Assembly: GCA_001778695.1 (NCBI GenBank)
Contig: MFHU01000003.1
Span: 75,112 to 139,111, forward strand
DNA length: 64,000 bases
Reading direction: 5' to 3'
Source: Candidatus Giovannonibacteria bacterium RIFCSPHIGHO2_12_FULL_44_22
GTDB taxonomy: Bacteria; Patescibacteriota; Minisyncoccia; UBA11713; 2-01-FULL-45-33
Shown: positions 4,605 to 34,137 of the stretch, piece after piece
Layout: every line of letters begins with the position of its first letter
Numbering within the stretch: the first letter of the stretch is position 1
Made by a program: the position numbers and the translations under genes
Notes under the pieces: model-generated
What the model saw: only the letters and a program-made list of their open reading frames with translations
Databases searched by the model: none
Told to the model about the DNA's origin: nothing

Positions 4605-6828
<2,224 letters not shown>

Positions 6829-7765: not shown

Positions 7766-9159
7766 CGATTTTAGAATTTCACAAAGCCCTTAAAAATAAA
7801 AAAACTTCCGCAAGAGAGACGGCAATTTCCTATTTGGACAAAATAAAAAAGGAAAATAAAAATTTAAACGCCTATCTGGAAATTTTTTCCGCCAGAGGGG
7901 GATCCGCATCTGGCGGAGAGTATGACGCGCTTAAGCAGGCAAAAGAAATTGACGAGAAAATCGCTTCGGGCGAAGAACCCGGCGCGCTTTGGGGCGTGCC
8001 GATTGCCATAAAAGACAATATTTTAATAAGAGGGGAAATTGCCTCCGCTGCCTCAAAAATTTTAGGAAATTACGTGGCTTCCTACGACGCGCATGTGATT
8101 GCAAAATTAAAAAAAGCTGGCGTAATATTTTTGGGGCGCACCAATATGGACGAATTTGCCATGGGTTCATCAACCGAAAACTCCGCCTACGGTCCGACAA
8201 AAAATCCGCGCGACACTTCCAAAGTTCCGGGTGGTTCATCTGGCGGCTCGGCCGCCGCCGTTGCCGGCGGCCTCGCCATGGCTGCCTTGGGTTCAGATAC
8301 CGGGGGCTCCATCCGCCAGCCGGCGGCTTTTTGCGGAGTTGTTGGTTTGAAGCCCACTTACGGCGCGGTTTCCCGAAACGGACTTATCGCCATGGCTTCT
8401 TCTTTGGACCAAATCGGACCAATTACCCAAACAGTGGAAGACGCGGAAATTTTATTTAATACAATTAAAGGAAAAGACGAAATGGATTCAACTTCTGTTT
8501 TACCAAAAGTTTTCAACCGCGCCGCCAAAATTAAAACCATTGGCATTCCCAAAGAATATTTCAGTGAACAAGGTCTTGACCCCCATATTAAATCAGAACT
8601 TGATAAAGTAATTAACAAACTTGAGAAAAATTATGAAATCCACGAAATCAACTTGCCGCATACCAAATACGCTCTGGCTTGCTACTATATAATTGTACCG
8701 GCGGAAGTTTCATCCAATATGGCGCGGTTTGACGGTGTAAGATACGGCGAAAGAAAAGATGCCGGAAATTTGATTGAAACTTACAAAAAAAGCCGCGGCG
8801 AGGGAATCGGGCTTGAAGTCAGAAGAAGAATTTTGCTGGGCACTTACGCGCTTTCGGCGGGCTACTACAACGCGTATTATTCCAAAGCCCAGCGCGTCCG
8901 TTCGTTGGTTGCAGAAGATTTTAAAAAAGCATTCGCCGAAGTTGATCTGATTTTGGCGCCCACCGTTCCTACTCCGCCTTTTAAAATCGGCGAAAAAACA
9001 AATGACCCATTGGCTATGTACCTTTCCGATATTTATACTATTCCGGCAAACTTGGCGGGCGTGCCAGCGCTCACTTTGGCTTCAGGCGCCCAGCTTATTG
9101 CCCCGCATTTTGAAGAAAATAGATTATTTGAAGTCGGTAAATTTATAGAACATGATTGA
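7762..9159 (+). CDS. gatA: Asp/Glu-tRNA amidotransferase subunit A (amidase)
   Basis: Amidase signature GGSSGGSAAAVA plus GSDTGGSIRQPA. 465 aa. Confidence 0.9.
   Translation: MTILEFHKALKNKKTSARETAISYLDKIKKENKNLNAYLEIFSARGGSASGGEYDALKQAKEIDEKIASGEEPGALWGVPIAIKDNILIRGEIASAASKILGNYVASYDAHVIAKLKKAGVIFLGRTNMDEFAMGSSTENSAYGPTKNPRDTSKVPGGSSGGSAAAVAGGLAMAALGSDTGGSIRQPAAFCGVVGLKPTYGAVSRNGLIAMASSLDQIGPITQTVEDAEILFNTIKGKDEMDSTSVLPKVFNRAAKIKTIGIPKEYFSEQGLDPHIKSELDKVINKLEKNYEIHEINLPHTKYALACYYIIVPAEVSSNMARFDGVRYGERKDAGNLIETYKKSRGEGIGLEVRRRILLGTYALSAGYYNAYYSKAQRVRSLVAEDFKKAFAEVDLILAPTVPTPPFKIGEKTNDPLAMYLSDIYTIPANLAGVPALTLASGAQLIAPHFEENRLFEVGKFIEHD
7889..7918 (+). repeat. GC-rich palindromic mini-insert in gatA, TCCGCCAGA-N12-TCTGGCGGA, encoding (S)ARGGSASGG(E)
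   Basis: 9-bp inverted arms. A near-identical element is present in asnB at 32926-32956. Confidence 0.6.
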
Positions 9160-12333: not shown

Positions 12334-12420
12334 TTATAGTTTAGTCGCTACAAATAATGAGCTTAGAATAACATAAATTAACGCTTTGCAGAATAAAACT
12401 GTAAGGTTATTAAAATAAAA

Positions 12421-12455
12421 CAGAAGTGGCGGATTTTATCCGCCACTTCTGTTTT
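12421..12455 (-). terminator. Terminator hairpin downstream of the tRNA cluster; A/T runs flank both sides, so possibly bidirectional
   Basis: Perfect 12-bp stem CAGAAGTGGCGG-ATTTTAT-CCGCCACTTCTG, flanked by T and A runs. Confidence 0.6.
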
Positions 12456-12540
12456 ATCATTTTCCAAGCCGATCGGTCTTCCGATAAAAAGTGTTTCGGG
12501 CGCGGGCGATGGGATTTGAACCCACGATCTCCTCTCATGA

Positions 12541-12656
12541 CCCCGCACCAAAAATTTCCAGCGGGCCCGAAGGGATTTGAACCCTCGATCTTCCCCGTGA
12601 CAGGGGGACGTGTTGCCAGGCTACACCACGGGCCCATATTTAATTTTGGTGCGGGG
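12541..12656. repeat. 13-bp perfect inverted repeats (CCCCGCACCAAAA and TTTTGGTGCGGGG) bracketing tRNA-Asp with 8-nt spacers on each side
   Basis: Read directly. The left arm is 12541-12553 and the right arm is 12644-12656. Confidence 0.85.
12562..12635 (-). tRNA. tRNA-Asp (GUC)
   Basis: GGGCCCG-TG-GTGT-AGCCTGGCA-ACAC-G-TCCCC-CTGTCAC-GGGGA-AGATC-GAGGG-TTCAAAT-CCCTT-CGGGCCC-G. Confidence 0.85.
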
Positions 12657-12712: not shown

Positions 12713-12784
12713 TGGCTGCAGCAGGGATCGAACCTGCGACCTAGGGCTTATGAGTCCCTCGCTCTACCACTGAGCTATGCAGCC
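12713..12784 (-). tRNA. tRNA with CAU anticodon (Met or Ile2 type)
   Basis: GGCTGCA-TA-GCTC-AGTGGTA-GAGC-G-AGGGA-CTCATAA-GCCCT-AGGTC-GCAGG-TTCGATC-CCTGC-TGCAGCC-A. G1-C72 is paired. Confidence 0.8.
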
Positions 12785-12855: not shown

Positions 12856-13329
12856 ATGATTCGCATTAAAAAACTTAAATCGCTCTTGGCAATTGTTGAA
12901 AATTCTGCACTGGGCGATAACTACCTCTTCCGAAATTTATATGCCGATGTTAATGGCGAAGAAAAAGATATTCTTGAAGACGGCGCTTTGTCGTGCGCGG
13001 TTTTCGCGTCGGCGGTTTTACTAAATTTGGAGCTTATTAAAAAGCCGCATGCCACGGTTTCCGGAACCGTTAAAGATATGTTTGAAAGCGGATGGCGCGA
13101 AATTGCTCAATTAGGGCCGGGGGCGGTTATTCTGTGGGAGAAAATAATATTTGAAGACGGGAAAGAACACTCCCATATTGGTTTTTATATCGGCAATGAG
13201 GAGGCGATTAGCAATTCTTTTGCTGACAAATGCCCTCGGCGGCATCATATAACTTATGGCACTAACCAAGACGGCGCGCCGAAACGCAAAATAGAAAAAA
13301 TTTATTGGCATCCGGAGCTGAATGATTAA
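12856..13329 (+). CDS. Hypothetical NlpC/P60-like papain-fold protein
   Basis: A Cys in the block ALSCAVF and a His block HSHIGFYIGN that resembles the NlpC/P60 HVGIYIG motif. Weak evidence. Confidence 0.35.
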   Translation: MIRIKKLKSLLAIVENSALGDNYLFRNLYADVNGEEKDILEDGALSCAVFASAVLLNLELIKKPHATVSGTVKDMFESGWREIAQLGPGAVILWEKIIFEDGKEHSHIGFYIGNEEAISNSFADKCPRRHHITYGTNQDGAPKRKIEKIYWHPELND

Positions 13330-14473
13330 AAACATGTCTAATATAGAAATCAAATCTTCGGAGGAGGTAGAGATAATAAAAACTCTTGAGGCCCGGAGCG
13401 ACCACGAGGCAAAAAGATTATTGCGTTTTTTGAAAATGCCGGATTTATCGCGCGCTAAAGCAAGCCCGCTTTATGAATTAATAGAGCGCCTAGTTAACCT
13501 CCCGGAATTTAAATCATTTGATGTTGTAAAAATTCCGGATATTGTCCCCGCCAAAGAAAGTTTTGATTTGTTTGATTTTCCGCTTGACCATCCCACGCGG
13601 AGCAAGTCGGACACATACTATATTAACGACGAATATATTCTTCGCACTCACACTACGGTCATGTGGTATTATTATTTGCTTTCGGAGGCGATTAAAGAAA
13701 AATTAAAAGGCGAAGCGCCAATCGGGGTTTTTTCCTACGGCAAAGTTTACAGGAAAGATGAAATAGATCGCCACCATATGAATGTTTTTCACCAAGTGGA
13801 CGGATTATACCTTTGCCGAAAAAACGAAAAAATTTTTGAAAGGCGGGATTTAGAAGAAGTCCTTGTGAAAATCGCTAAAGCAATATTCGGGAAAGACATA
13901 AAGTATCGCTTTAATGATGATTTTTTTCCGTTTACTTATTCCAGCATTGAAATGGAGATTGAGAAAAAAGATAAATGGATAGAAGTTCTTGGCGCGGGCA
14001 TCGCACAGCCGTCCGTTTTGGAGAAGCTTGGCGTTGATTCTAAAATTTGGGGCGGCTGGGCTTTCGGTTTCGGTTTGGAACGGCTTGCCATAATCAGTAT
14101 GGATTTGCCGGACATACGGCTTTTATGGTCGGAAGATCCGCGGATTAAAAAACAATTGCGCTTGGGAAATAAATATATTCCGGTGAGCAAATATCCGCCG
14201 ATTACTAGAGATATATCTTTTGTCGTCGCCAACGACTTTATTCCAAATAATTATTTTGATTTGATAAGGGATTTGGGAGGCGATTTGGTTGAAGAAGTTA
14301 AGCTGATTGATAAATATGAAAATCTAGAAAAATTCGGCACGGGAAAAATAAGCTACACATACAGAATAATTTACAGAAGCAACGACAGGACTTTGGTTTC
14401 GGGCGAAATTGATAAAATCCAAAACGAAATTTACAAACAAACCGCCAAGCAATTTAACGCCGAATTAAGATGA
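13322..14473 (+). CDS. pheS: Phenylalanine-tRNA ligase, single-chain (mitochondrial-type) form: PheS catalytic core plus a C-terminal FDX-ACB-like anticodon-binding domain
   Basis: HPTRSKSDTYYI...LRTHTT motif. Class II motif 3 GWAFGFGLERLAIISMDLPDIRLLWSEDPR. C-terminal SKYPPITRDISFVV...DLGGDLVEEVKLIDKYE...ISYTYRIIYRSNDRTL resembles the ACB domain of monomeric PheRS. No pheT lies adjacent. Confidence 0.7.
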   Translation: MIKNMSNIEIKSSEEVEIIKTLEARSDHEAKRLLRFLKMPDLSRAKASPLYELIERLVNLPEFKSFDVVKIPDIVPAKESFDLFDFPLDHPTRSKSDTYYINDEYILRTHTTVMWYYYLLSEAIKEKLKGEAPIGVFSYGKVYRKDEIDRHHMNVFHQVDGLYLCRKNEKIFERRDLEEVLVKIAKAIFGKDIKYRFNDDFFPFTYSSIEMEIEKKDKWIEVLGAGIAQPSVLEKLGVDSKIWGGWAFGFGLERLAIISMDLPDIRLLWSEDPRIKKQLRLGNKYIPVSKYPPITRDISFVVANDFIPNNYFDLIRDLGGDLVEEVKLIDKYENLEKFGTGKISYTYRIIYRSNDRTLVSGEIDKIQNEIYKQTAKQFNAELR

Positions 14474-15198
14474 AATCATTTTTACATTTGTTTTATAAAA
14501 TCCGCGGGAAATTTTTAGAAAATTCAGCTAAAAATAAACTTTCTAAATTAAAAAACAGCGAATATAGATTGCCGTATCAAATTCCTTATGTTTCGCAGTA
14601 CGCTTCTAAAGAATTAGCGGAGAGTTATGTTAAAAACGCCGAACTTTTGGCAAGTGACCCAAGGTGGCGCGATTTTGGCGCGGAAACGCCAGAAGAATAC
14701 GCTTTTTGGTCTAGGAGAATTTGCGGAATGGCCTGTTTTCAAATGATTTTATTATCACTTAGACGTCCGACGTCTAAGTTGATGGAATTAGGGAAAAAAG
14801 CGATGACCGCCGGATGCTATTTATTGGATCCCAAAAATCCAAAACGGCTCGTCGGGCTTTTGCATAAACCGTTTTTGAAATTTATTGATAAGTTTGGGCT
14901 TGCCGGGAAACTAATGTGGTATATCGGACCAGCGGTTATCGCCTATGAGATTTTAAATAAAAATTTTGTGATTGCTTCTGTAAGCCACGAAATACGCTTT
15001 AGAGATGCGCGTCCAGAAGATAAAACCGGGCACTTGGTTTTAGTTCATGGGTTTAAAATGAATGGAGGCATAATCGCTGGATTTTATATTCATAATCCTT
15101 CTGGTTTTTACGGCATCTCGCAAGAAAATCATTTTGTCCCGGCTGATGATTTTTTAAATTGCTTCTCGGGCAGGATTATTGTTTTGAAGTTAAAGTAA
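14470..15198 (+). CDS. Hypothetical papain-like (peptidase C39-like) protein
   Basis: VSQ...ICGMACFQMIL Cys block and HLVLVHGF His block. It contains the palindromic insert at 14757-14784. Confidence 0.35.
   Translation: MKSFLHLFYKIRGKFLENSAKNKLSKLKNSEYRLPYQIPYVSQYASKELAESYVKNAELLASDPRWRDFGAETPEEYAFWSRRICGMACFQMILLSLRRPTSKLMELGKKAMTAGCYLLDPKNPKRLVGLLHKPFLKFIDKFGLAGKLMWYIGPAVIAYEILNKNFVIASVSHEIRFRDARPEDKTGHLVLVHGFKMNGGIIAGFYIHNPSGFYGISQENHFVPADDFLNCFSGRIIVLKLK
14757..14784 (+). repeat. Palindromic element CACTTAGACGTC-C-GACGTCTAAGTTGAT inside a CDS, encoding LRRPTSKL
   Basis: An identical 28-nt copy lies at 28894-28921 in an unrelated GT4 gene. The core palindrome is 21 bp. Confidence 0.8.
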
Positions 15199-15767: not shown

Positions 15768-17771
15768 ATGCCCAAAAAAACCAAGAAAATAGCGCCCAAA
15801 AATGAGGGGGGGAAAGGGGGGTCGTACACCGCAAAGGATATTTTTGTATTAGAGGGTTTAGAGCCGGTCAGGAAGCGCCCGGGAATGTATATCGGGTCAA
15901 CCGGCGCGGAGGGACTACATCATTTGATTTGGGAAGTAGTGGATAACTCCATAGACGAAGCGATGGCGGGGTACGCCAAAAATATAATTGTGACTCTTTT
16001 GCCGAATCACCGCGTGCGCGTGACGGACGACGGCCGGGGAATTCCGATTGAAGTCCACAAGCAGACAAAAAAATCTGCTTTAGAAACCGTGATGACCATG
16101 CTTCACGCCGGAGCCAAATTCGGCGGAGAGGGTTATAAAGTTTCGGGAGGGCTCCATGGTGTTGGTGTTTCGGTGGTCAACGCTTTATCCAGCTGGATGC
16201 GCGCGGAAGTTTGCCGACCTGCCCGTAATGCTACGCATAGCGTTGCAGGCGGGGAGGGCGAGCACTGGGCGCAGGAATATCAAAGAGGCAAACCAAAAAC
16301 TAAGGTGCAGAAAGTCGGCAAATGCCGAAAGCTGGGGACTTCCATAACATTTGAACCGGATCCGGAAATTTTCGCGGACAGCAAAACCGGAAACATTCCT
16401 GAATTTGATTGGAAAAAAATTCTTGAGAGATTGCGCCAACAGGCGTATTTGACGAAGGGCATAAAAATTTCCATATCCGACGAAAGAGAAAAAAACGAGG
16501 CGGAACAAAATTCTTATTCTTTTTATTTTGAAGGCGGGGTGGCTTCCTACGTGAAATATTTAAACGAGGGGTTTACTCCGAAGCACGACACGATTTTTTA
16601 CACTCAAAAAGAATCCGAGGAAATCTTGGTTGAAATCGCTTTGCAATATGTTGACGATTTGCAGACGAGGGAGTTGGCTTTCGCCAATAATATTTTAAAC
16701 CCCGAAGGCGGTATGCATTCCACGGGTTTTCGGACGGCGCTCACAAGGTCGCTCAATTCTTACGCCAGAAAAAATAGTTATCTAAAAGAATCTGAAGAAA
16801 ATCTAACTGGAGAAGACGCGCGGGAAGGGCTCACTTCAATAATTTCCATAAAACTTAAAAATCCGCAGTTTGAAGGGCAGACCAAGGCCAAACTGGGCAA
16901 CCCCGAGGCACGTACGGCGGTGGACGATGTTTTCGCAAAATCTTTTGACGCTTTTTTGGAAGAGCGCCCGCAGGATGCCCGCGCTATTTTGGAAAAAGTA
17001 ATTTTAGCGTTAAAAGCCAGAAAGGCAGCCAAGGCGGCCAAGGATACTATTTTAAGAAAGGGCGCTTTGGACGGCCTGGCGCTTCCGGGAAAGCTGGCGG
17101 ACTGCCAGAGCAAGAATCCCGCCGAGTCGGAAATTTTTATCGTGGAAGGCGATTCGGCCGGAGGCTCGGCTAAGCAGGCGCGCGACAGGAGATTTCAGGC
17201 GATACTTCCTTTGCGTGGAAAAATTTTGAACGTGGAAAAAGCCCGCTTGGACAGAATGCTGACTTCAGACCAAATAAAAACCTTGGTCATCGCGTTGGGA
17301 GCGGCGATTGCGGAAAGTTTTGACCTTTCAAAATTAAGATACCACCGCATCGTGATTATGACCGATGCCGACGTTGACGGCGCGCACATCCGCACGCTTT
17401 TGCTCACGCTTTTTTACAGATATTATTTGCCATTGATTCAAAAGGGATATATTTATATAGCCCAGCCACCGCTTTATAAAATTCAAAAAGGGAAAGAAAT
17501 CAAATACGTTTATTCAGAAGAAGAAAAAAATAAAACAGTAAAATATTTTGATAATCCCAATATTCAGCGCTACAAAGGCCTGGGAGAAATGAACGCCGAC
17601 GAATTGGGCGAGACAACAATGGACCCGGCCAAGCGCGTTTTGAGGCAGGTGACGATTGACGACGCCAAAGGCGCAGATCATATTTTTGATGTTTTGATGG
17701 GCGACGACGTCGCCCCCCGCAAACTTTTTATCCAAACCCACGCCAAGGCGGTAAAGAATTTGGATATATAA
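15768..17771 (+). CDS. gyrB: DNA gyrase / topoisomerase IV subunit B
   Basis: GHKL ATPase motifs (EVVDNSIDEAMAG, GLHGVGVSVVNALS) and Toprim (EGDSAGGS, PLRGKILNVE). 667 aa. Confidence 0.9.
   Translation: MPKKTKKIAPKNEGGKGGSYTAKDIFVLEGLEPVRKRPGMYIGSTGAEGLHHLIWEVVDNSIDEAMAGYAKNIIVTLLPNHRVRVTDDGRGIPIEVHKQTKKSALETVMTMLHAGAKFGGEGYKVSGGLHGVGVSVVNALSSWMRAEVCRPARNATHSVAGGEGEHWAQEYQRGKPKTKVQKVGKCRKLGTSITFEPDPEIFADSKTGNIPEFDWKKILERLRQQAYLTKGIKISISDEREKNEAEQNSYSFYFEGGVASYVKYLNEGFTPKHDTIFYTQKESEEILVEIALQYVDDLQTRELAFANNILNPEGGMHSTGFRTALTRSLNSYARKNSYLKESEENLTGEDAREGLTSIISIKLKNPQFEGQTKAKLGNPEARTAVDDVFAKSFDAFLEERPQDARAILEKVILALKARKAAKAAKDTILRKGALDGLALPGKLADCQSKNPAESEIFIVEGDSAGGSAKQARDRRFQAILPLRGKILNVEKARLDRMLTSDQIKTLVIALGAAIAESFDLSKLRYHRIVIMTDADVDGAHIRTLLLTLFYRYYLPLIQKGYIYIAQPPLYKIQKGKEIKYVYSEEEKNKTVKYFDNPNIQRYKGLGEMNADELGETTMDPAKRVLRQVTIDDAKGADHIFDVLMGDDVAPRKLFIQTHAKAVKNLDI
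16217..16253 (+). repeat. GC-rich partly palindromic insert in gyrB, CCTGCCCGT...GCAGGCGGGG, encoding an apparent insertion of about 15 aa (CRPARNATHSVAGGEGE)
   Basis: The same end motifs (CCTGCCCGT and GCAGGCGGGG) recur at 31341-31364 in a GT4 gene. Confidence 0.5.
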
Positions 17772-25719: not shown

Positions 25720-27294
25720 ATGTTAAGCTCATCGGTAATGGATTGGTTCAACAAGTTCACAACAAGCCGGTGGCATTTTTTGTTGGTTATAATTTTGTTG
25801 GGCGCAGCAAATTTTGCTTACGCGTCCGTTGGCGATGTCGCGATTTCCGAAGTTTTATTTGACCCGGCCGGAGGCACGGACACAGGATTAGAATACGTTG
25901 TAATAAAAAATTTTGGTTCCTCCGCGGTGGATGTATCAGGTTGGGATTTATATCCATCGGGCGCCGGATATTTTACTTTGCCCAGCTTTAGTTTAGGTGG
26001 CGGAAAAGAACTTAAAATACATTTGCGGGCAAGCGGTAATAATGATGATGGCAATCTTTACCATACAAATGCTTCTGCCAATATGGGCAACTCATCTGGT
26101 TCTTTGGCGCTTTTTTCTAGCACGACACATAGTAAAGACACGATTATTTCTTATATTAGATATCACAAACCGGGAAGCGGAGAGAGCAAAACATGGGAAA
26201 CGGCCGCCGCGGGCACCGAATTGTGGACTGCCGGAACATTTTTTGATATTTCATCGGGCACTGAAGGAAAAATTTTAAAACTTATTGATTATAATCAAAA
26301 AACGAGCGTGTCCGGCTGGTCTTTGGCTGAAGCTTCTGCTCAAAGCGATGTTGGTGTTGGACCGGCGTCCGTTACAGAAAATGATGTTGCCGCTACATTT
26401 TCCGGAAGCGTTGCTCCGCTGCCGGTGAACCAGATAAAAGCTTATGCCGGGCCGGATCGCGCGGGCATCGCCGGAGGAGAAATATTTTTTGAAGGCTTCG
26501 CCGAAGGTTTGCAAGGCGACCCGTTGGACGGCGCGAGATTTTCTTGGAATTTCGGCGACGGCGCCGCATTAGTAGACGGCAAAAAAATCGGGCACACTTT
26601 TCTTTTTCCAGGCGTTTATACGGTTTCTTTAAACGTGTCCGCGGGAGAATATTCTGCGCTGGATACAGCCAATTTGGTTGTTACCGAGAGCCCACTTTTG
26701 ATTTCTGAGATAAAAACTGGCGCTGATGGCTGGGTTGAGATAAAAAATAATTCAGCTCGGAAAATTGAAATTTCGCGGTTTGGATTTGGAGAAAGTAATT
26801 TCAAGCCATTTTTCTTTCCAGAAAATACTTATTTGGCGCCCTGGGCTTTGGTGGTTTTGGGCACGTCAACTCTGGGATTTATTTTGCCGGAAAGCGGCGA
26901 GATAAAATTGCTTTATCCCAACGGTAAAATTATTTTTTCATCAAATTATCCGAATTTAAATTTAGGGAGCGATGAAAGTTTAAGTCTTGAAAATGGCGGA
27001 CCTGCCTCGCCTGGCGCGAATCAAGGCGGGTGGCTTAAAACAAAAATCACTCCGGGCTTGAAAAACGAGATAACAAAATCTATTGCGCTTTCGGCAAAAA
27101 GTGCCGCGGAACCGAAAGCCAAACCGCCCACGGCCATTGTGGAAAATCTAGGAAACGCCCAAACCGCCTCGGTTATCAGTATTGAAAAACCGTCTTCATT
27201 TTTAAACGACTATTTTTGGCTTTTTGTTGGTCTCGGCGCCGGAATTTTTGCTGGCCTCATTTTTGTGATAATCCGTCACAGTTTTACGTTATAA
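25720..27294 (+). CDS. Cell-surface protein: signal/TM, lamin-tail domain, PKD domain, second lamin-tail domain, C-terminal TM anchor
   Basis: LTD patterns ISEVLFDPAGG..EYVVIKN..VDVSGWDL and LISEIKTGADGWVEIKNNS. PKD-like FSWNFGDGA...GVYTVSLNV. C-terminal hydrophobic anchor. Confidence 0.55.
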   Translation: MLSSSVMDWFNKFTTSRWHFLLVIILLGAANFAYASVGDVAISEVLFDPAGGTDTGLEYVVIKNFGSSAVDVSGWDLYPSGAGYFTLPSFSLGGGKELKIHLRASGNNDDGNLYHTNASANMGNSSGSLALFSSTTHSKDTIISYIRYHKPGSGESKTWETAAAGTELWTAGTFFDISSGTEGKILKLIDYNQKTSVSGWSLAEASAQSDVGVGPASVTENDVAATFSGSVAPLPVNQIKAYAGPDRAGIAGGEIFFEGFAEGLQGDPLDGARFSWNFGDGAALVDGKKIGHTFLFPGVYTVSLNVSAGEYSALDTANLVVTESPLLISEIKTGADGWVEIKNNSARKIEISRFGFGESNFKPFFFPENTYLAPWALVVLGTSTLGFILPESGEIKLLYPNGKIIFSSNYPNLNLGSDESLSLENGGPASPGANQGGWLKTKITPGLKNEITKSIALSAKSAAEPKAKPPTAIVENLGNAQTASVISIEKPSSFLNDYFWLFVGLGAGIFAGLIFVIIRHSFTL

Positions 27295-27302
27295 TTAGAT
27301 AA

Positions 27303-29438
27303 ATGAGCGAAAAACCTGCGGTTTTAGTTTTTACTACCGCTTATTTCCCGTTTGTGGGAGGAGCGGAAGTGGCGATACAGGAAGTGGCAAGAAGGCTCAA
27401 AAATGAGTACGATTTTTTTATTTTTACTTCAAGAATGGACGGCAAACTCCCAGCGCGCGAAAAAAGGCTAGAAGGATTGGTAATCAGAATTGGTTTTGGA
27501 AATAAATTTGATAAATTCTGGCTTTTAATTTTTGGATGGTTTGTAGCTTGGCGGGAATTGAGAAAGTGGCATAGAAAAATTATTTTTTGGGTTATGGATT
27601 TTTCGTTCGGGGCCGCGGTAGCTGGATTTTTGAAAATTTTTTATCCGAAAATTCCGTTGGTTTTTACAATTCAATATGGCTACGGCGACGAAAGAGTTAA
27701 AAAAGGCAGAGGTGGCCTTATGAATTTGGCATTTCGGCTGATACTTTCGCAGGCGGATTATGTTACGGCAATTTCAAATTATTTATTGAATTTATGCAAG
27801 CAGTACGGCTATATTGGCGAGGAAGCGGTAATACACAACGGGGTTGATTTAAAAAAGTTTACAAATCAAGAATCACGAATAGGAAATCATGTGATAATTT
27901 CAACCTCGCGGCGAGTTTACAAAAATGGTCTGGATATTCTGGAAAAGGCCTTCGAGATCATAAAAAAGAAATTTCCAGATGCCGAGTTGAAAATTGTTAG
28001 CGACGTTCCGTATGATGAATTGCCTAAATATTTATGGAAAGCTAGTATCTTCGTCAGACCCTCGCGCTCTGAGGGGATGGGCAATGCGTTTATTGAAGCT
28101 TTAGCGGCCGGATTACCGATAATTGGCACGCCTGTCGGAGGGATTTTAGATATTATTGAGGATGGGCAGACGGGTCTTTTCGCGAAAGTTGACGACCCAC
28201 AAGATTTAGCAGAGAAAATTAAAATTTTACTCGAAGATAAAAAATTGGTGTCGCAAATTATAGAAAATGGTAGAAAAATAGTTGAAGAAAGATTTTCTTG
28301 GGATAAAATCGCGGCGCAATACGCCGAGGTTTTTAATTCGCAATTAAATACAAAAAAAAGAATACTGATAGTCACAGGAATTTTCCCGCCCGATGTCGGT
28401 GGACCGGCGACATACAGCAAAATTTTACTAGACGAGTTGCCTAAAGAAAATTTTTGCGCAAAAGTATTAAGTTTCGGAAGCGTTAAATATTTGCCCAAAG
28501 GCATTAGCCATATTGCTTATTTCCTTAAAGCCATGCGGTTAGGCGCGCGCGCCGATATTATTTTCGCGCAGGATCCGGTGAGTGTGGGGTTGCCCGCGAT
28601 GCTAGCGGCAAAAATTTTGCGCAAAAAATTTATTTTAAAAATCGTGGGCGATTATGCTTGGGAACAAGGCGTTCAGCGGTTCGAGGTGAAAGAGATTTTA
28701 GATGATTTTTTAAATAAGAAATACGGTATTAATGTGGAGGTTTTGAGAAAAATAGAAAAATTTGTCGCAAATCACACAGAAAAAATTATCGTGCCGAGCG
28801 AGTATTTGAAAAAAGTTGTTTCGGCGTGGGGCGTAAATCCGAATAAAATTAAAGTAATTTATAATGCGTTTGATTTTAAAGACTTCGAACACACACTTAG
28901 ACGTCCGACGTCTAAGTTGATTGTTTCGGCGGGTCGTCTTGTTCCGTGGAAAGGATTCGGCACTTTAATTGAGATTATGCCAAAGATTTTAAGAGAAGTG
29001 CCGGACGCGAAGTTGATTATTATTGGAGATGGACCGGAAAGACACAAATTAAAATTACAAGTAGCCACTTGGCGGCTCGGCCGCCAAGTGGAACTTATAG
29101 GAAATCTGCCGCATAAAAAAGTTTTGGAATATCTCGCTTCCGCCGATGCTTTTATTTTAAACACTGCCTACGAAGGATTTTCGCACCAAATTTTGGAGGC
29201 GATGGCAATTGGGGCGCCTGTTATCACGACAAACGTTTGCGGAAATCCGGAGTTGGTGGAAAACAATGTCTCCGGAATTTTGGTCGAATTTAACGATAAG
29301 GAAGCGATTAAAAATTCTATTTTAAAATTATTGAAAGACGAAAAACTTACTCAAAAATTAACCTCCGCCGCTTTCCAAAAATCCAAACAATTTTCAAAAG
29401 AGAGGATGATTAATGAAACGATAAAAATATTATTATGA
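27303..29438 (+). CDS. Tandem two-domain glycosyltransferase (GT4 + GT4)
   Basis: Two EX7E-type motifs: SEGMGNAFIEALAAGLPIIGT and FSHQILEAMAIGAPVITT. Confidence 0.7.
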   Translation: MSEKPAVLVFTTAYFPFVGGAEVAIQEVARRLKNEYDFFIFTSRMDGKLPAREKRLEGLVIRIGFGNKFDKFWLLIFGWFVAWRELRKWHRKIIFWVMDFSFGAAVAGFLKIFYPKIPLVFTIQYGYGDERVKKGRGGLMNLAFRLILSQADYVTAISNYLLNLCKQYGYIGEEAVIHNGVDLKKFTNQESRIGNHVIISTSRRVYKNGLDILEKAFEIIKKKFPDAELKIVSDVPYDELPKYLWKASIFVRPSRSEGMGNAFIEALAAGLPIIGTPVGGILDIIEDGQTGLFAKVDDPQDLAEKIKILLEDKKLVSQIIENGRKIVEERFSWDKIAAQYAEVFNSQLNTKKRILIVTGIFPPDVGGPATYSKILLDELPKENFCAKVLSFGSVKYLPKGISHIAYFLKAMRLGARADIIFAQDPVSVGLPAMLAAKILRKKFILKIVGDYAWEQGVQRFEVKEILDDFLNKKYGINVEVLRKIEKFVANHTEKIIVPSEYLKKVVSAWGVNPNKIKVIYNAFDFKDFEHTLRRPTSKLIVSAGRLVPWKGFGTLIEIMPKILREVPDAKLIIIGDGPERHKLKLQVATWRLGRQVELIGNLPHKKVLEYLASADAFILNTAYEGFSHQILEAMAIGAPVITTNVCGNPELVENNVSGILVEFNDKEAIKNSILKLLKDEKLTQKLTSAAFQKSKQFSKERMINETIKILL
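28894..28921 (+). repeat. Second copy of the CACTTAGACGTCCGACGTCTAAGTTGAT palindromic element
   Basis: Identical 28 nt to 14757-14784. It encodes LRRPTSKL in-frame. Confidence 0.8.
29065..29091 (+). repeat. Hairpin element CCACTTGGCGGC-TCG-GCCGCCAAGTGG (12-bp stem) inside a GT CDS, encoding TWRLGRQV
   Basis: Read directly. A second copy lies at 29835-29873. Confidence 0.8.
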
Positions 29439-30484
29439 AAGTCTTAATGATAAGCGGGGATCCGGGGGTTTTGAATCCGAATAGCGACGCGGGAAAGCGG
29501 ATGGAAGAATATCGCCAAACTCTTGGAACATTAGATATTTTAGTCTGCCGAGGAAATATTTTTAGTTTTATTACAGGATTTTTTCGCGGCGTAAAAATCA
29601 TTCGCAAAAATAAACCCGAAGTTATTACAGCTCAAGATATGGAACATTCTCTATTTGCTTGGATTTTTTCAAGATTATTTAAAGTTCCGTGGCAGATGCA
29701 GATTCATACGGATATTTTTAGTCCGTATTTTTGGCAGGAATCTTTTAAAAATAAAATACGCGTTGTGCTGGCAAAATTCTTGTTGCCTCGAGCAAGTTGT
29801 ATTCGGGTTATGAGCGAAAGAATTAAAGAATCAATAACTTGGCGGCTCGGCCGCCAAGTGGCGGCCGAGTTATTCGTTACAGTTTTGCCAATTTTTGTGG
29901 ATACGGAAAAAATTAAAAATACGCCGATTAAAACCAATCTTCACAAAAAATATCCCGGGCGGTTTATAATTTTGATGGCATCGCGGATAACAAGAGAAAA
30001 AAATATCGTCATGGCCTTAGAGGCCATGCGCGGACTAACGCAGAATGACACGCGGACTAACGCAGAAAAGGTTTTATTGCTGATTATCGGTGATGGGCCG
30101 GAGAAAGAACACTTACGGCGTATGGCGTATAGCTTAAAGCTGGATGAGAGCGTTGTTTTTGAGTCAGCTACTTCCGACCTCGCTTCTTATTATAAAACCT
30201 GCGATTTGTTTTTGCTCACCTCCGATTACGAAGGGTACGGAAGAACTTTGATTGAGGCGGCGGCCATTAAAGCCAAAATAATCTCCTCCGATGTCGGAAT
30301 AGTTCCGGAAATTTTAGAGTTGGATTGTATTTTTAAAATTGGTGATAAGGATGGTTTGGCTGAAAAAATCAACGCCGCTTTGGCAGGCCAACTCAAGCCG
30401 CCAAAACCTGTGATTTTTCAAACAAAAGAGGAATATCTAAGATTATATAAGAATAACTTGGAACAATGCCAAAAAATATTTTAA
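29435..30484 (+). CDS. Glycosyltransferase family 4
   Basis: C-terminal YEGYGRTLIEAAAIKAKIISSDVG. Confidence 0.6.
   Translation: MKVLMISGDPGVLNPNSDAGKRMEEYRQTLGTLDILVCRGNIFSFITGFFRGVKIIRKNKPEVITAQDMEHSLFAWIFSRLFKVPWQMQIHTDIFSPYFWQESFKNKIRVVLAKFLLPRASCIRVMSERIKESITWRLGRQVAAELFVTVLPIFVDTEKIKNTPIKTNLHKKYPGRFIILMASRITREKNIVMALEAMRGLTQNDTRTNAEKVLLLIIGDGPEKEHLRRMAYSLKLDESVVFESATSDLASYYKTCDLFLLTSDYEGYGRTLIEAAAIKAKIISSDVGIVPEILELDCIFKIGDKDGLAEKINAALAGQLKPPKPVIFQTKEEYLRLYKNNLEQCQKIF
29835..29873 (+). repeat. Second copy of the TTGGCGGCTCGGCCGCCAAGTGG hairpin element, extended by CGGCCGAGTTATT
   Basis: ACTTGGCGGCTCGGCCGCCAAGTGG is identical to 29067-29091. It encodes TWRLGRQV. Confidence 0.8.
30011..30072 (+). 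repeat. Hairpin ATGGCCT-TAG-AGGCCAT followed by a tandem 22-bp duplication (CGCGGACTAACGCAG x2) inside a GT4 CDS
   Basis: Read directly. It encodes MALEAMRGLTQNDTRTNAEK. Confidence 0.7.
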
Positions 30485-31509
30485 TTCTTACTCAAAAAGT
30501 TGACAAGAATGATGATAATCTAGGTTTTTTTCATCGCTGGTTGGAGAAATTTGCCGAGAAAACGGGCAAGATTTTTGTCATCGCGAATTTTATCGGCGAG
30601 TATAATTTGCCGGCCAATGTTCAGGTTTTTTCTTTGGGTAAAGAAAAAAGATTGGGCAGAGTTAGGCGCTATATAAACTTTTATAAATATCTTTTTAAAA
30701 CTTTGCCCAAATCGGATGCCGTATTTGTGCATATGATTCCGGCTTGGGTGGTTTTAGTTTGGCCAGTGGCCGCGATTTATAGAAAAAAAATATATTTGTG
30801 GTATACGCACAAATCACTAACTTTTTCGCTTCGGCTTGCCGAAAAATTGGTTGCTAAAATTTTCACGGCTTCTCTTGAAAGCTGCCGTTTAAATTCTAAA
30901 AAAATCGCGGTTGTTGGCCATGGGATTGATACGGAACATTTTAAGCCCAAAGATTTTCCGCATGACCAGGGCGCGTTTAGACTTCTTAGTGTTGGCCGGG
31001 TAACTCCTTCCAAAGATTATGAATTTTTGTTGGAAGCCATGGAGGCTTTAAAAATCCGCGGCTATAGCGCGGTTTTAGATGTTGTGGGTGCTCCGATAAC
31101 CTCCGCAGATTTTAGCTATAAAAATAAGCTTGATGATTTAATTAAAAAGAGAGGATTGCAAAACATTGTCAATTTTATTGGACCAAAAATTTACGCAGAA
31201 ATTCCAGATGTTTATAACGGCCACGATTTATTGCTTCACGCAAGCGAAACCGGAAGCCTTGATAAAGCTGTTTTAGAAGCAATGGCTTGCGGTTTGCCGC
31301 CAGTAACAACCAACGAAGCTTTTAAGAATATTCTGGCGGCCCTGCCCGTCCGGCAGGCGGGGCGGTATGTGTCGCGCAAGAATAGCAGTGAAATGACAGG
31401 AAAAATTATCCAACTAAAAAACACTGGGAAAAATTTATCTTTGCGCGAAATAATAATACAAAACCATAACTTAAATAATTTGATTAAGAAAATTATGGAA
31501 AATTTATGA
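30466..31509 (+). CDS. Glycosyltransferase family 4
   Basis: HASETGSLDKAVLEAMACGLPPVTT. Confidence 0.6.
   Translation: MPKNILILTQKVDKNDDNLGFFHRWLEKFAEKTGKIFVIANFIGEYNLPANVQVFSLGKEKRLGRVRRYINFYKYLFKTLPKSDAVFVHMIPAWVVLVWPVAAIYRKKIYLWYTHKSLTFSLRLAEKLVAKIFTASLESCRLNSKKIAVVGHGIDTEHFKPKDFPHDQGAFRLLSVGRVTPSKDYEFLLEAMEALKIRGYSAVLDVVGAPITSADFSYKNKLDDLIKKRGLQNIVNFIGPKIYAEIPDVYNGHDLLLHASETGSLDKAVLEAMACGLPPVTTNEAFKNILAALPVRQAGRYVSRKNSSEMTGKIIQLKNTGKNLSLREIIIQNHNLNNLIKKIMENL
31341..31364 (+). repeat. Short hairpin CCTGCC-CGTCC-GGCAGG followed by CGGGG; a family member of the gyrB insert
   Basis: Shares CCTGCCCGT and GCAGGCGGGG with 16217-16253. Confidence 0.5.
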
Positions 31510-32339: not shown

Positions 32340-34137
32340 CTTCAAAGACGAGGGGCTGATCTTGAAAATGAATCAGGCAACGCGCCACAGGGGCCCAGAC
32401 GGCACAGGAATTTTTTTGGGCGAAAAAATTTCTTTAGGGCATAATCGCTTAAGCATAATTGACTTGAGCGATGCCGCAAATCAGCCTATGTTTTCCTCCG
32501 ACGGCAATTTAGTGATTAGTTTTAACGGAGAAATTTATAATTTCCGCGAGATTAAAAGAGAATTTGAAGATTTTTATAAATTTAAAACCAATAGCGACAC
32601 GGAAGTTATTTTAGCCGCTTATCAAAAATGGGGCGCCGAATTCGTTAAAAAATTAAACGGGATTTTTGCTTTTGTAATTTGGGACAAAACTAAAGAAGAA
32701 TTATTTTTAGCGAGAGACCACATAGGCTTGAAGCCTTTATATTATTTTTTGGATGGCGATAGATTTATTTTTTCTTCTGAAATTAAAGCTATTTTGGAGC
32801 ATGATGTGCCTCGGAAGCTCAACCGCGAAGCATTTAATATTTATTTAAGAACGCTTTACGCGCCGGCGCCGCTCACTATGTTTGAAGGAATTTATAAATT
32901 CCCGCAGGCGCATTATGGCGTTTTCTCCGCCAAAGGCGGATCTGCCTCGGGCGGAAAAAATGGCGAATTTAAACTCACAAAATATTGGGAAATTCCAGTA
33001 ATAAAATATTTTGATACTCCTTTTAAAATTTTGGCGAAAAATTTGCGCGGTGAAATTTTAAAAAGCGTGGAGCGGCAATTAATTTCCGACCGGCCGATCG
33101 GGCTTTACCTTTCCGGCGGGATTGATTCCAGCGCGGTGCTAGATGCTATGCATGAATTTAGAAACAATATTGATACTTTTTCAGTGGGCTTTGAATTGCC
33201 TAATAAAGATGACGAAAATAAATTCAACCAGGATTTTTATTTGGCCAAGCGCACGGCGGCGCTCTATGGGACCAGGCACCATGAAATTTTATTGGAAGAA
33301 AAAGAAGTGCTGAATCTTTGGGAAAAAGTTTTTTTACAGCTTGACGAGCCGATTGCCAACTCCACTGCCATCCCGATGATGAAATTAGCCGAATTCACCA
33401 AGGGCCATGGGGTAGATGTGGTTTTGGGAGGCGACGGCGGGGACGAACTTTTCGGAGGGTACGAAAGATACAGATTGAGCAGAATTATTGGCTATTTCCC
33501 AAAAATATTGTCATTTTTGCCAAAGGGAGTGGACATATTTTCCCGTTTTATGTTTCAAAAAGATCCTGTTTTAAATGAAGTTTTGCAAAAAAAGTTTTTT
33601 GACAGAGAAGTTTCAAGATCGTTTTTTGAAGAACGCTATTTTAAAGAAAATCCGTTCAAAACTTTTGAGGAACTTTTTATGGACGTGGACAGGCGGACGT
33701 GGCTTGTTGATGAGTCGCTAATGCGGACGGATAAAATGTCTATGTTCTCGGCGGTTGAGGCGAGGGCGCCTCTTTTGGACAAAAATCTTATTGAATTCGC
33801 GGCGAAAATTCCCAGAAAATACAAAGTCAGCGCATTCAACACAAAAATTATTTTAAAAGAGGCGTTTATGGGACGGATTCCGGATTTTTTATTATCCCAG
33901 CCGAAACGTGGCTGGTTTTCTCCGGCGGCCAAATGGTTGAGGAACCCCCAAATTCATGCTACCGCTAAAAATATTCTCTCCAAAAATTATTACGCCGAAA
34001 CCGCGCCTATATTTAATTGGGAAAATGTTGATAAAATTCTAAAAGACCATATTGAAGGCAGAAGATACAACCTCACAATTTTGTGGGCGTTGATTAATTT
34101 TCAAGTTTGGGCGAAACTCTATAAAGTTAAATTATGA
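32317..34137 (+). CDS. asnB: Asparagine synthetase (glutamine-hydrolysing)
   Basis: N-terminal MCAING with catalytic Cys2. PP-loop SGGIDSS. 606 aa. Confidence 0.85.
   Translation: MCAINGFNFKDEGLILKMNQATRHRGPDGTGIFLGEKISLGHNRLSIIDLSDAANQPMFSSDGNLVISFNGEIYNFREIKREFEDFYKFKTNSDTEVILAAYQKWGAEFVKKLNGIFAFVIWDKTKEELFLARDHIGLKPLYYFLDGDRFIFSSEIKAILEHDVPRKLNREAFNIYLRTLYAPAPLTMFEGIYKFPQAHYGVFSAKGGSASGGKNGEFKLTKYWEIPVIKYFDTPFKILAKNLRGEILKSVERQLISDRPIGLYLSGGIDSSAVLDAMHEFRNNIDTFSVGFELPNKDDENKFNQDFYLAKRTAALYGTRHHEILLEEKEVLNLWEKVFLQLDEPIANSTAIPMMKLAEFTKGHGVDVVLGGDGGDELFGGYERYRLSRIIGYFPKILSFLPKGVDIFSRFMFQKDPVLNEVLQKKFFDREVSRSFFEERYFKENPFKTFEELFMDVDRRTWLVDESLMRTDKMSMFSAVEARAPLLDKNLIEFAAKIPRKYKVSAFNTKIILKEAFMGRIPDFLLSQPKRGWFSPAAKWLRNPQIHATAKNILSKNYYAETAPIFNWENVDKILKDHIEGRRYNLTILWALINFQVWAKLYKVKL
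32926..32956 (+). repeat. GC-rich palindromic mini-insert in asnB encoding (S)AKGGSASGG(K)
   Basis: TCCGCC...GGCGGA arms. Paralogous to the gatA element at 7889-7918. Confidence 0.6.

Follow-up and report, generated by a model that had tools for sequence, protein, structure and literature searches.

The gyrB gene of Candidatus Giovannonibacteria bacterium RIFCSPHIGHO2_12_FULL_44_22 contains a short GC-rich hairpin element in its coding sequence, and this element is probably one copy of a dispersed group of miniature GC-rich hairpin repeats, which would be non-autonomous, depend on their structure and tolerate translation. The gene (positions 15768-17771, + strand) is located in a 64,000-nucleotide stretch of contig MFHU01000003.1, referred to below as the window, which has a G+C content of 42%. 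Its open reading frame (ORF) encodes a protein of 667 amino acids, which matches the Pfam families HATPase_c, DNA_gyraseB, Toprim and DNA_gyraseB_C and can be aligned to solved GyrB structures. The element, CCTGCCCGTAATGCTACGCATAGCGTTGCAGGCGGG (16218-16253, + strand), encodes in frame the 12 amino acids PARNATHSVAGG, which are residues 151-162 of GyrB. On the evidence of sequence comparison, it is a lineage-specific insertion of 36 nucleotides (nt) between the codons CGA and GAG.

In gyrB, the 9-mer CCTGCCCGT (16218-16226) is followed by an 18-nt spacer (16227-16244) and the 10-mer GCAGGCGGGG (16245-16254), and the translation of the stretch reads ...EVCRPARNATHSVAGGEGEHW... with no stop codon. 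The initial annotation of the window had described this arrangement and its translation as they are; the stretch that it delimited also stands, except for its start, which was placed one base too early, at 16217. Counted directly, the G+C content of the 36 nt is 64%. In the 64 kb, both strands included, there are three exact copies of the 9-mer and two of the 10-mer. Both 10-mers lie downstream of a 9-mer and within 30 nt of it, so that the shared termini cannot be due to chance.

The GyrB of the window and that of Candidatus Giovannonibacteria RIFCSPLOWO2_01_FULL_43_160, which belongs to the Candidate Phyla Radiation (CPR), are 100% identical. When the 60 closest GyrB homologues are aligned, PARNATHSVAGG is present in the query alone, between EVCR and (D/E)G-EHWAQEY, and the 12 residues are absent from the 59 others; homologues at 91-93% identity lack them. 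A loop of the same length in the orthologues, which had been named beforehand as the outcome that contradicts an insertion, was not found in the alignment. PARNATHSVAGG is also present in five full-length members of the query's own GyrB cluster (at least 90% identity), and since all full-length members of this cluster have 667 amino acids, the species-level population is fixed for the insert. The DNA of three relatives (L001, L002 and L256; L-numbers denote DNA loci of relatives or from the scans described below, P-numbers protein homologues) has a clean 36-nt gap at the site. L256, the closest relative without the insert, reads TGC AGA GAC GGC GAG, where the window reads TGC CGA, then the 36 nt, then GAG GGC GAG. 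Comparison of the window with the DNA of these three relatives reveals no target-site duplication (TSD). The absence of the residues from the homologues and the clean gap bear out the earlier proposal of an insertion. The accompanying idea that it replaces a KRDGK-like loop is wrong, as the residues are added at the turn between CR and (D/E)G.

Two sets of related elements were collected. Metagenomes were scanned with the gyrB-type ends CCTGCCCGYAATGC...GCAGGCGGG, which gave at least 120 loci or contigs with 126 matches listed (X36, the set of gyrB-type 36-nt elements). The species-representative genomes of GTDB were scanned with CCTGYCYGYCGRCAAGGCRGG, which gave at least 120 stretches with 122 matches listed (X21, the related 21-mer set), against about 10 expected by chance according to a rough estimate of our own. 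Counts out of these totals, and the hosts named, refer throughout to the matches listed. Exactly 36 nt is the length of 81 of the 126 X36 matches. The commonest X36 sequence, CCTGCCCGCAATGCTACGCATAGCGTTGCAGGCGGG, has at least 23 exact copies and a second allele at least 14. The gyrB insert differs from the former by a single base (C9T), and is therefore a copy of a discrete unit rather than a local invention. In the X21 set, 92 of the 122 matches are the identical 21-mer CCTGCCTGCCGGCAAGGCAGG, and 13 belong to a second allele in which two linked positions differ. The family thus extends far beyond the present genome, and the earlier description of it as a fourth family of this genome has to be given up. 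The same results make a local replication error (template switching, quasi-palindrome correction or slippage without any imported element) an extremely improbable origin. Strand switching can create palindromes, and a zigzag of repeat, inverted repeat and repeat is indeed found at 29837-29869 of the window, but the flanking gyrB sequence templates none of the 36 inserted nt and the same 36-mer, one base off, exists elsewhere in at least 23 identical copies.

The 21-mer is hosted by many CPR lineages and by Bacteroidota, Omnitrophota, Planctomycetota (including Scalindua), Ignavibacteria, Nitrospirota and Gammaproteobacteria; cultured Bacteroidota that carry it are Arenibacter, Maribacter, Winogradskyella, Aequorivita and Marinoscillum. 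Across hosts, the copies are flanked by unrelated sequences. Eleven viral contigs of IMG/VR contain the 21-mer, and no match to it was found in PLSDB plasmids or GenBank phages. Long ORFs contain 71 of the 126 X36 copies and 63 of the 122 X21 copies. For 44 in-ORF copies, comparison of the host proteins with Pfam gave 111 different families, among them S1, Hsp70, NrdD, AlaRS, GluRS, adenylosuccinate synthetase, PEP synthase, CarB, PyrG, DnaB and class-V aminotransferases.

Often the 21-mer sits centrally within other short repeats (L014, L064, L068, L055, L043, L062, L063, L085, L117, L090, L093 and L119), for example in ...CTTCGACAAG^CTCAGGGTGAC, in GTCATTGCGAGCCCCGAAG^GGGCGAAGCAATC and, within its own family, in CCTGCCCG^...^GCAGGCGGG. 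This nesting hints at an ecosystem of such modules common to several phyla. Copies also occur next to each other. An IscS-like gene (Aminotran_5 ORF, L216) contains three consecutive antisense copies (PPASAMPKALRAG x3), L190 has at least three sense copies in tandem, and in the viral contigs L248 and L253 the 21-mer is paired head to head with its reverse complement as a doublet. In L008 (932-952, - strand), the 21-mer lies within a tRNA-Phe-like sequence (GCCGACGTAGCTCAGTGGTAGA^...^GCAACCTTTTGAAAAG) directly upstream of an intact tRNA-Thr gene. An interrupted functional tRNA gene with an insertion in the D-arm was considered for this locus and rejected, as the sequence is a truncated tRNA-like fragment.

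In the GyrB protein, the extra residues fall, by alignment to solved structures, at the turn that joins two strands after the GLHGVG ATP-lid motif. In an AlphaFold model with a mean predicted local distance difference test score (pLDDT) of 69, the insert is the loop connecting strands 141-151 and 164-172, and pLDDT is below 50 at residues 156-160. Mapping onto structure, which had been proposed as a check, thus puts the insert at a beta-hairpin turn of the ATPase domain by both routes. According to the model's prediction, the 12 residues, when translated, would loop out where a beta-hairpin on the surface of the GHKL ATPase domain has its tip. In gyrB the copy is most likely a harmless passenger and probably has no function. 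An adaptive GyrB loop, which would act at the protein level on ATPase-domain interactions or on drug or toxin sensitivity and whose DNA symmetry would be incidental, is very unlikely. The insert is fixed in the species and the ATPase domain is the target of many inhibitors, as such a role would have it, but the same nucleotide sequence recurs in the genes of dozens of unrelated proteins as well as between genes, the loop is a hairpin tip predicted to be disordered, and relatives at 91-93% identity do without it.

Other Giovannonibacteria GyrB proteins (P0005 and others) have different short inserts, such as PNGQA, at or near the same beta-hairpin turn, and further inserts (RGESAL, KGESA and PVEQAG) are present in Giovannonibacteria homologues in the loop near GyrB residue 205. 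The differing inserts indicate that these sites of GyrB are repeatedly permissive. Among about 120 GyrB homologues there are several more short inserts of a like kind at a few permissive sites.

The copies in genes have a strongly preferred reading frame. Of the 126 X36 matches, 106 have a length divisible by three, and 50 of the 75 X36 copies located in ORFs of at least 120 amino acids use one of the six frames, sense frame 0, which reads PARNA(T/S)HS(V/D)AGG. Similarly, 39 of the 44 sense X21 copies in long ORFs are read in the LPAGKAG frame. In-ORF copies are mostly in the sense orientation (sense to antisense 54:17 for X36 and 46:17 for X21). Intergenic copies between co-directional genes show no orientation bias (same to opposite 14:11 for X36 and 10:19 for X21), and the sense bias therefore arises after insertion; a strand bias as a property of the insertion itself was rejected for this reason. 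The preference for a single frame in ORFs and the lack of an orientation bias between genes point to copies that are translated and filtered by selection, a conclusion drawn from the statistics of frames.

These statistics bear on the possibility that the insert is bypassed or removed rather than translated. In gene 60 of phage T4, which encodes a topoisomerase subunit, a 50-nt gap is skipped by the ribosome, as are the mitochondrial byp elements, and a GC-rich hairpin insert in another topoisomerase gene is a striking parallel to gene 60. Bypass of the gyrB insert is nevertheless highly improbable. The insert is in frame and has no stop codon, matched take-off and landing codons are missing (the junctions are CGA/CCT...GGG/GAG and the flanking codons CGA and GAG differ), and neither lengths in multiples of three nor one dominant frame would be needed for a sequence that is skipped.

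All members of the family have the outer arms CCTGCC(C/T)G and CAGGC(A/G)GG in common, and versions range from 19 to 54 nt. The interior varies between 21-nt units, 30-nt units and the discrete 36-nt unit, which has an inner stem of 4-5 bp with an ATA loop. As RNA, the + strand of the gyrB 36-mer folds at -21.5 kcal/mol with three G-U pairs (z = -4.4; 0/200 shuffles as good), which agrees with the dyad symmetry originally reported, and the - strand folds at -13.0 kcal/mol (z = -1.3). The inner stem of the 36-mers (positions 16-19 with 23-26) covaries around the constant ATA loop (ACGC/GCGT and TCGC/GCGA), and alleles of 39 nt keep compensated 5-bp stems (TCAGC/GCTGA, TCGGC/GCCGA and AAAGC/GCTTT). 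In a set of 38 distinct 36-mers, whose outer arms are fixed by the search pattern, a bulged model gives a covariation of 0.106 compared to 0.056 in shuffles (0/500 reach 0.106), and pair 16-26 is observed as UA19/AU12/GC2. A continuous 15-bp helix was rejected, as its covariation is no better than that of shuffles. When energy parameters for DNA are used, the fold of the 21-mer, and likewise that of the 36-mer, is a hairpin with a single-stranded CCTG 5' of it.

Recruitment as an mRNA element that regulates gyrB and other genes (through ribosome pausing, RNase targeting or stabilisation, for instance) would account for the far better folding of the sense strand, which is due to the G-U pairs (-21.5 versus -13.0 kcal/mol), for the covarying inner stem and for the sense orientation of most in-ORF copies. 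Such a function is still quite unlikely. The host genes are unrelated and have no common theme, the closest relatives lack the element, its positions within genes are arbitrary loops and the intergenic copies have no orientation bias to their neighbours. The single preferred frame points to selection on the peptide and not to an RNA signal. At the gathering threshold, Rfam matches only tRNAs in the window and in 18 element-bearing loci.

Further members of the family in the window and in its relatives show what is gained at each insertion. A 21-nt member, CCTGCCCGTCCGGCAGGCGGG (31341-31361, + strand, within the motif CCTGCCCGTCCGGCAGGCGGGG at 31341-31362), encodes the seven amino acids LPVRQAG in a GT4 glycosyltransferase gene (30466-31509). 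Its 9-nt 5' and 9-nt 3' termini are in common with the gyrB element, as the initial annotation had noticed. LPVRQAG is missing from the closest GT4 homologues (P0122 and P0125), which makes this hairpin itself a lineage-specific insertion of 21 nt; in two other Giovannonibacteria (P0133 and P0141) the same peptide is found at a different site of the same protein family. A 30-nt member, CCTGCCTCGCCTGGCGCGAATCAAGGCGGG (27001-27030, + strand), in an ORF with LTD/PKD domains (25720-27294), encodes PASPGANQGG, a gain of 10 amino acids compared to the syntenic L002 orthologue. It is related to CCTGCCTCGCCTAGTCAAGGCGGGG, the second of two inserts in the gyrB of L001; the first, CCTGCCCGCCGGCAAGGCGGG, is at the N-terminus, and both sites are empty in the window. 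The pheS genes of L001, L002 and L256 contain three versions of the 21-mer (L001 3443-3463, L002 9325-9345 and L256) at a site which corresponds to about position 14290 of the window (gene 13322-14473) and which is empty there (GATTTGGG^AGGCGAT). The L001 version is the second global X21 allele. The peptides encoded by copies of the family include PARNATHSVAGG, PARNASHSDAGG, LPAGKAG and LPVRQAG. For five insertions the empty site is known; these have added 21, 30 or 36 nt exactly, and a duplication is found in none.

Distances in pheS and gyrB disagree. The nucleotide identity of pheS between the window and each of L001, L002 and L256 is about 69-70%. The gyrB gene of the window (15768-17771) has 93% DNA identity to L001 4345-6354, and the proteins are identical from about residue 300 on (the C-terminal ~55%), while pheS beside it has only 70% identity to that of L001. 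This difference suggests a recent recombination between lineages within gyrB.

The empty sites argue against the view that the elements are footprints, i.e., joined ends of a larger transposon or inserted element that was excised or internally deleted, with the arms as its terminal inverted repeats. Constant termini with a variable interior (versions of 21, 26 to 30, 36, 42 and 54 nt with the same arms) would be in line with this origin, and so would 7-nt direct repeats that abut some copies in the manner of a target duplication. Footprints are nevertheless an unlikely explanation: no longer element bounded by these arms is seen in ~1.9 Mb of loci, the 36-mer, a discrete unit whose inner stem covaries, is no random remnant, the gains at the five empty sites are exact and free of duplications, and an essential gene would need to have passed through an earlier disruptive insertion. 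The probability of an assembly or library artefact, which identical short sequences in many unrelated assemblies might bring to mind, is practically nil. The identical GyrB protein is found on 36 contigs from several sources (NCBI, JGI, ENA and Logan, with GW2011 and RIFCSP record names), copies are in frame, the pheS copies are inherited at an orthologous site with point divergence, and the elements occur in cultured isolates.

The preferred reading, dispersed miniature hairpin repeats, would work as follows. The elements would be selfish, non-autonomous DNA, whose spread would depend on the hairpin. They would land more or less at random, and copies in genes would survive only in loops, termini and linkers, where a small, flexible, frame-compatible peptide does no harm. 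The mechanism of insertion, which is the weakest step, would most likely be structure-specific and TSD-less, provided in trans and of the single-strand hairpin type (HUH/Y1 transposases). The hairpin of the elements is maintained. The position immediately upstream of them (-1) is biased, with a purine in 108 of 122 X21 and A in 69 of 124 X36 copies, and positions -2 and -3 are unbiased. Copies are modestly enriched in the loops of other hairpins (8 compared to ~3.5 expected) and strongly enriched between direct 7-nt repeats. Abutting repeats longer than 4 nt are always exactly 7 nt, with no repeats of 5, 6 or 8 nt seen, and they are often part of tandem heptamer arrays (GAAATTG, AAATTCG, GATTTCG, GATTTGA, GACTTTG and others). 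Because the empty pheS site already has two GATTTGG heptamers 5 nt apart, the heptamers may be a feature of the target and not a duplication.

Several observations weigh against this reading. About 7% of the copies have the abutting 7-nt repeats, which is a misfit with a purely TSD-less mechanism and at odds with the insertions in coding sequence that lack duplications; such repeats flank nine copies, none of them with a known empty site (L027, L029, L030, L041, L053, L086 and L012 for the 21-mer; L127 and L192 for the 36-mer). All-against-all clustering of the ORFs of 120 loci gave no common transposase; the recurrent ORFs are sensor kinases, glycosyltransferases and ABC transporters. A regular expression for HUH motifs, run over all loci (~1.9 Mb), found one true Y1_Tnp gene, in the X36-bearing contig L242 (9302-9967; 221 amino acids, IS200-like and RAYT-like, Pfam E = 1e-10). 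The gene of this sole Y1 transposase lies between CCACACC-loop-GGTGTGG hairpins of another family, similar to the one in ligA described below, and not by gyrB-type repeats. The matches listed for both scans amount to almost one per genome or contig, and the copy number may be low outside the CPR. To our knowledge, no REP or MITE family (see below) has 21-mers that are unchanged across phyla. The covariation comes mainly from one base pair and from the variants in length, among copies that share their descent. A polymorphism of filled and empty sites within one population, which would demonstrate current mobility, was not seen.

With somewhat less than an even chance, the elements form a new class, namely ultra-small hairpins of codon length (15, 21 and 36 nt) that are adapted to coding sequence and are inserted without TSDs, directed by hairpins or heptamer repeats, by a widely conserved enzyme. 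Lengths in multiples of three, the lack of stop codons and the use of one frame would then make each copy a benign flexible peptide. Such an enzyme would let the 21-mer persist unchanged from the CPR to Bacteroidota, Planctomycetota and phages.

In their behaviour the elements are closest to the Rickettsia palindromic elements (RPEs), and in their form to REP sequences (repetitive, extragenic and palindromic). RPEs are palindromic repeats of about 150 bp, in ten families confined to Rickettsia, that are inserted in frame in unrelated and often essential genes and translated at fold-compatible positions, and their transposase has not been identified (PMC10969869). The present elements are likewise in-frame palindromic repeats inserted in coding genes, with translation inferred from the statistics of frames, and neither group has been tied to a transposase. 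Unlike RPEs, they are 21-36 nt long (with modules of 15 nt as well), unrelated in sequence, spread over the CPR and several other phyla with identical copies across phyla, and dominated by one frame.

REPs, with their doublets (REPINs) and REP-associated tyrosine transposases (RAYTs), are imperfect GC-rich palindromes of 20-40 nt without target duplication and have the architecture GTAG + hairpin. The present elements resemble them in all these features, folding with DNA parameters as CCTG + hairpin, in the head-to-head doublets of L248 and L253 and in the one Y1_Tnp gene with flanking hairpins in an element-bearing contig. REPs, however, are extragenic by definition, are typically species-specific, occur in tens to hundreds of copies and have a cognate RAYT. 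The majority of the present copies lie within genes, one and the same sequence is found in several phyla, which argues against species specificity, and a cognate RAYT flanked by gyrB-type repeats was not found in the ~1.9 Mb of loci, where the Y1_Tnp gene of L242 with its CCACACC...GGTGTGG hairpins stands alone.

Other known elements are more distant. The GC clusters, double-hairpin elements and byp elements of fungal mitochondria are GC-rich hairpins of ~30-50 nt in an AT-richer genome, are located in coding and intergenic DNA and have a mobility mechanism that is unresolved; these elements are organellar, and in the case of byps the frame is broken and the ribosome skips the insert. They are the nearest analogue in size, but the present elements are bacterial, preserve the frame and are apparently translated. 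Bacterial MITEs (miniature transposable elements with inverted repeats) of the DDE type are likewise non-autonomous and multicopy, end in inverted repeats and are sometimes intragenic. They are, however, 50-500 bp long and have TSDs and a parent insertion sequence (IS). The present elements are shorter than a typical pair of terminal inverted repeats, their five events are free of duplications, and in the 120 loci neither a common transposase nor a long element, as expected of a parent IS with the same ends, was found. In contrast to the palindrome-associated transposable elements (PATEs) derived from IS200/IS605, there is no conserved tetra- or pentanucleotide target 5' of the elements, where only position -1 is biased. 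An incomplete collection of full-text literature yielded no prior description of the exact 21-mer, the 36-mer or the peptides, and searches by concept yielded RPE, MITE and organellar analogues only.

Four features set the family apart, namely a very small size, a design compatible with codons, the nesting of copies and identity across phyla. If the preferred reading is true, streamlined genomes with almost no intergenic space host selfish repeats inside essential genes (gyrB, rpoB, dnaK, dnaB and tRNA synthetases), and loop insertions in conserved proteins have a recurrent origin. Such insertions would confound marker-gene alignments and indel-based phylogeny, and identical 21- and 36-mers across phyla could mislead k-mer binning and contamination checks. 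The bias in frame would be a natural data set on the short peptides tolerated in protein loops. The elements would also point to an unidentified, duplication-free insertion activity that recognises small hairpins, of relevance to mobile DNA and to genome-engineering enzymes.

The window contains hairpins of other families as well. There are 11 perfect hairpins with stems of 10 bp or more and loops of up to 20 nt, compared to 1.0 +/- 1.1 in block shuffles. In ligA, a different family with a perfect 15-bp stem, ACCCCCACACCAAAAGTTTTGGTGTGGGGGT (5150-5180, + strand), is a lineage-specific in-frame insertion of 33 nt, which gives about 11 extra residues compared to L002; its stem, CCACACC/GGTGTGG, is like the hairpins that flank the Y1 transposase gene of L242. 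In gatA, the 30-nt double-hairpin module TCCGCCAGAGGGGGATCCGCATCTGGCGGA (7888-7917, + strand), encoding (F)SARGGSASGG, is an insertion of 30 nt compared to L002. A second copy of this module, also 30 nt and in the same frame, encodes FSAKGGSASGG in an asparagine synthase gene (32926-32955, + strand), and relatives are present in the metagenome contigs L165, L171, L177 and L221. As the GT4, ligA and gatA hairpins are all lineage-specific in-frame insertions, the window carries a population of short intragenic hairpin modules.

The palindrome ACTTAGACGTCCGACGTCTAAGT is found in a peptidase C39-like ORF (14757-14779, + strand) and again in a GT4 gene of 711 amino acids (28895-28917, + strand), where it encodes LRRPTSKL in the same frame; the 23-mers are identical and, counting flanks, 28 nt are in common. 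The latter gene also contains CCACTTGGCGGCTCGGCCGCCAAGTGG (29065-29091, + strand), encoding TWRLGRQV. ACTTGGCGGCTCGGCCGCCAAGT occurs twice in the window (29067 and 29837), in one frame for both; the second copy, again encoding TWRLGRQV, is followed by a further inverted segment (29837-29869, + strand) in the next glycosyltransferase gene (29435-30484). With the palindrome at 29065, the length is the same as in homologues (ATWRLGRQVE here, TNYKLQKTVI there). At 28895, the homologues P0264, P0267 and P0272 have LRRPTSKL at the same place. Neither palindrome is therefore a simple recent insertion. The initial proposal of a population of short hairpins in coding sequence holds for the window, with this correction for 29065 and 28895. 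On the whole its observation is confirmed, and its interpretation is supported and was even understated.

The sequence AACTTGGCGGCTCGGCCGCCAAGTGGCGGCCGAGTTA at 29837-29872 consists of two overlapping palindromes (segment, inverted segment, segment), a pattern expected from strand-switch copying. An intergenic hairpin at 12415-12457, with a perfect 20-bp stem and a 3-nt loop (ATAAAACAGAAGTGGCGGAT TTT ATCCGCCACTTCTGTTTTAT), adjoins two tRNA genes (12562-12635 and 12713-12784, - strand) and has AAGTGGCGG in common with the palindromes at 29065 and 29837.

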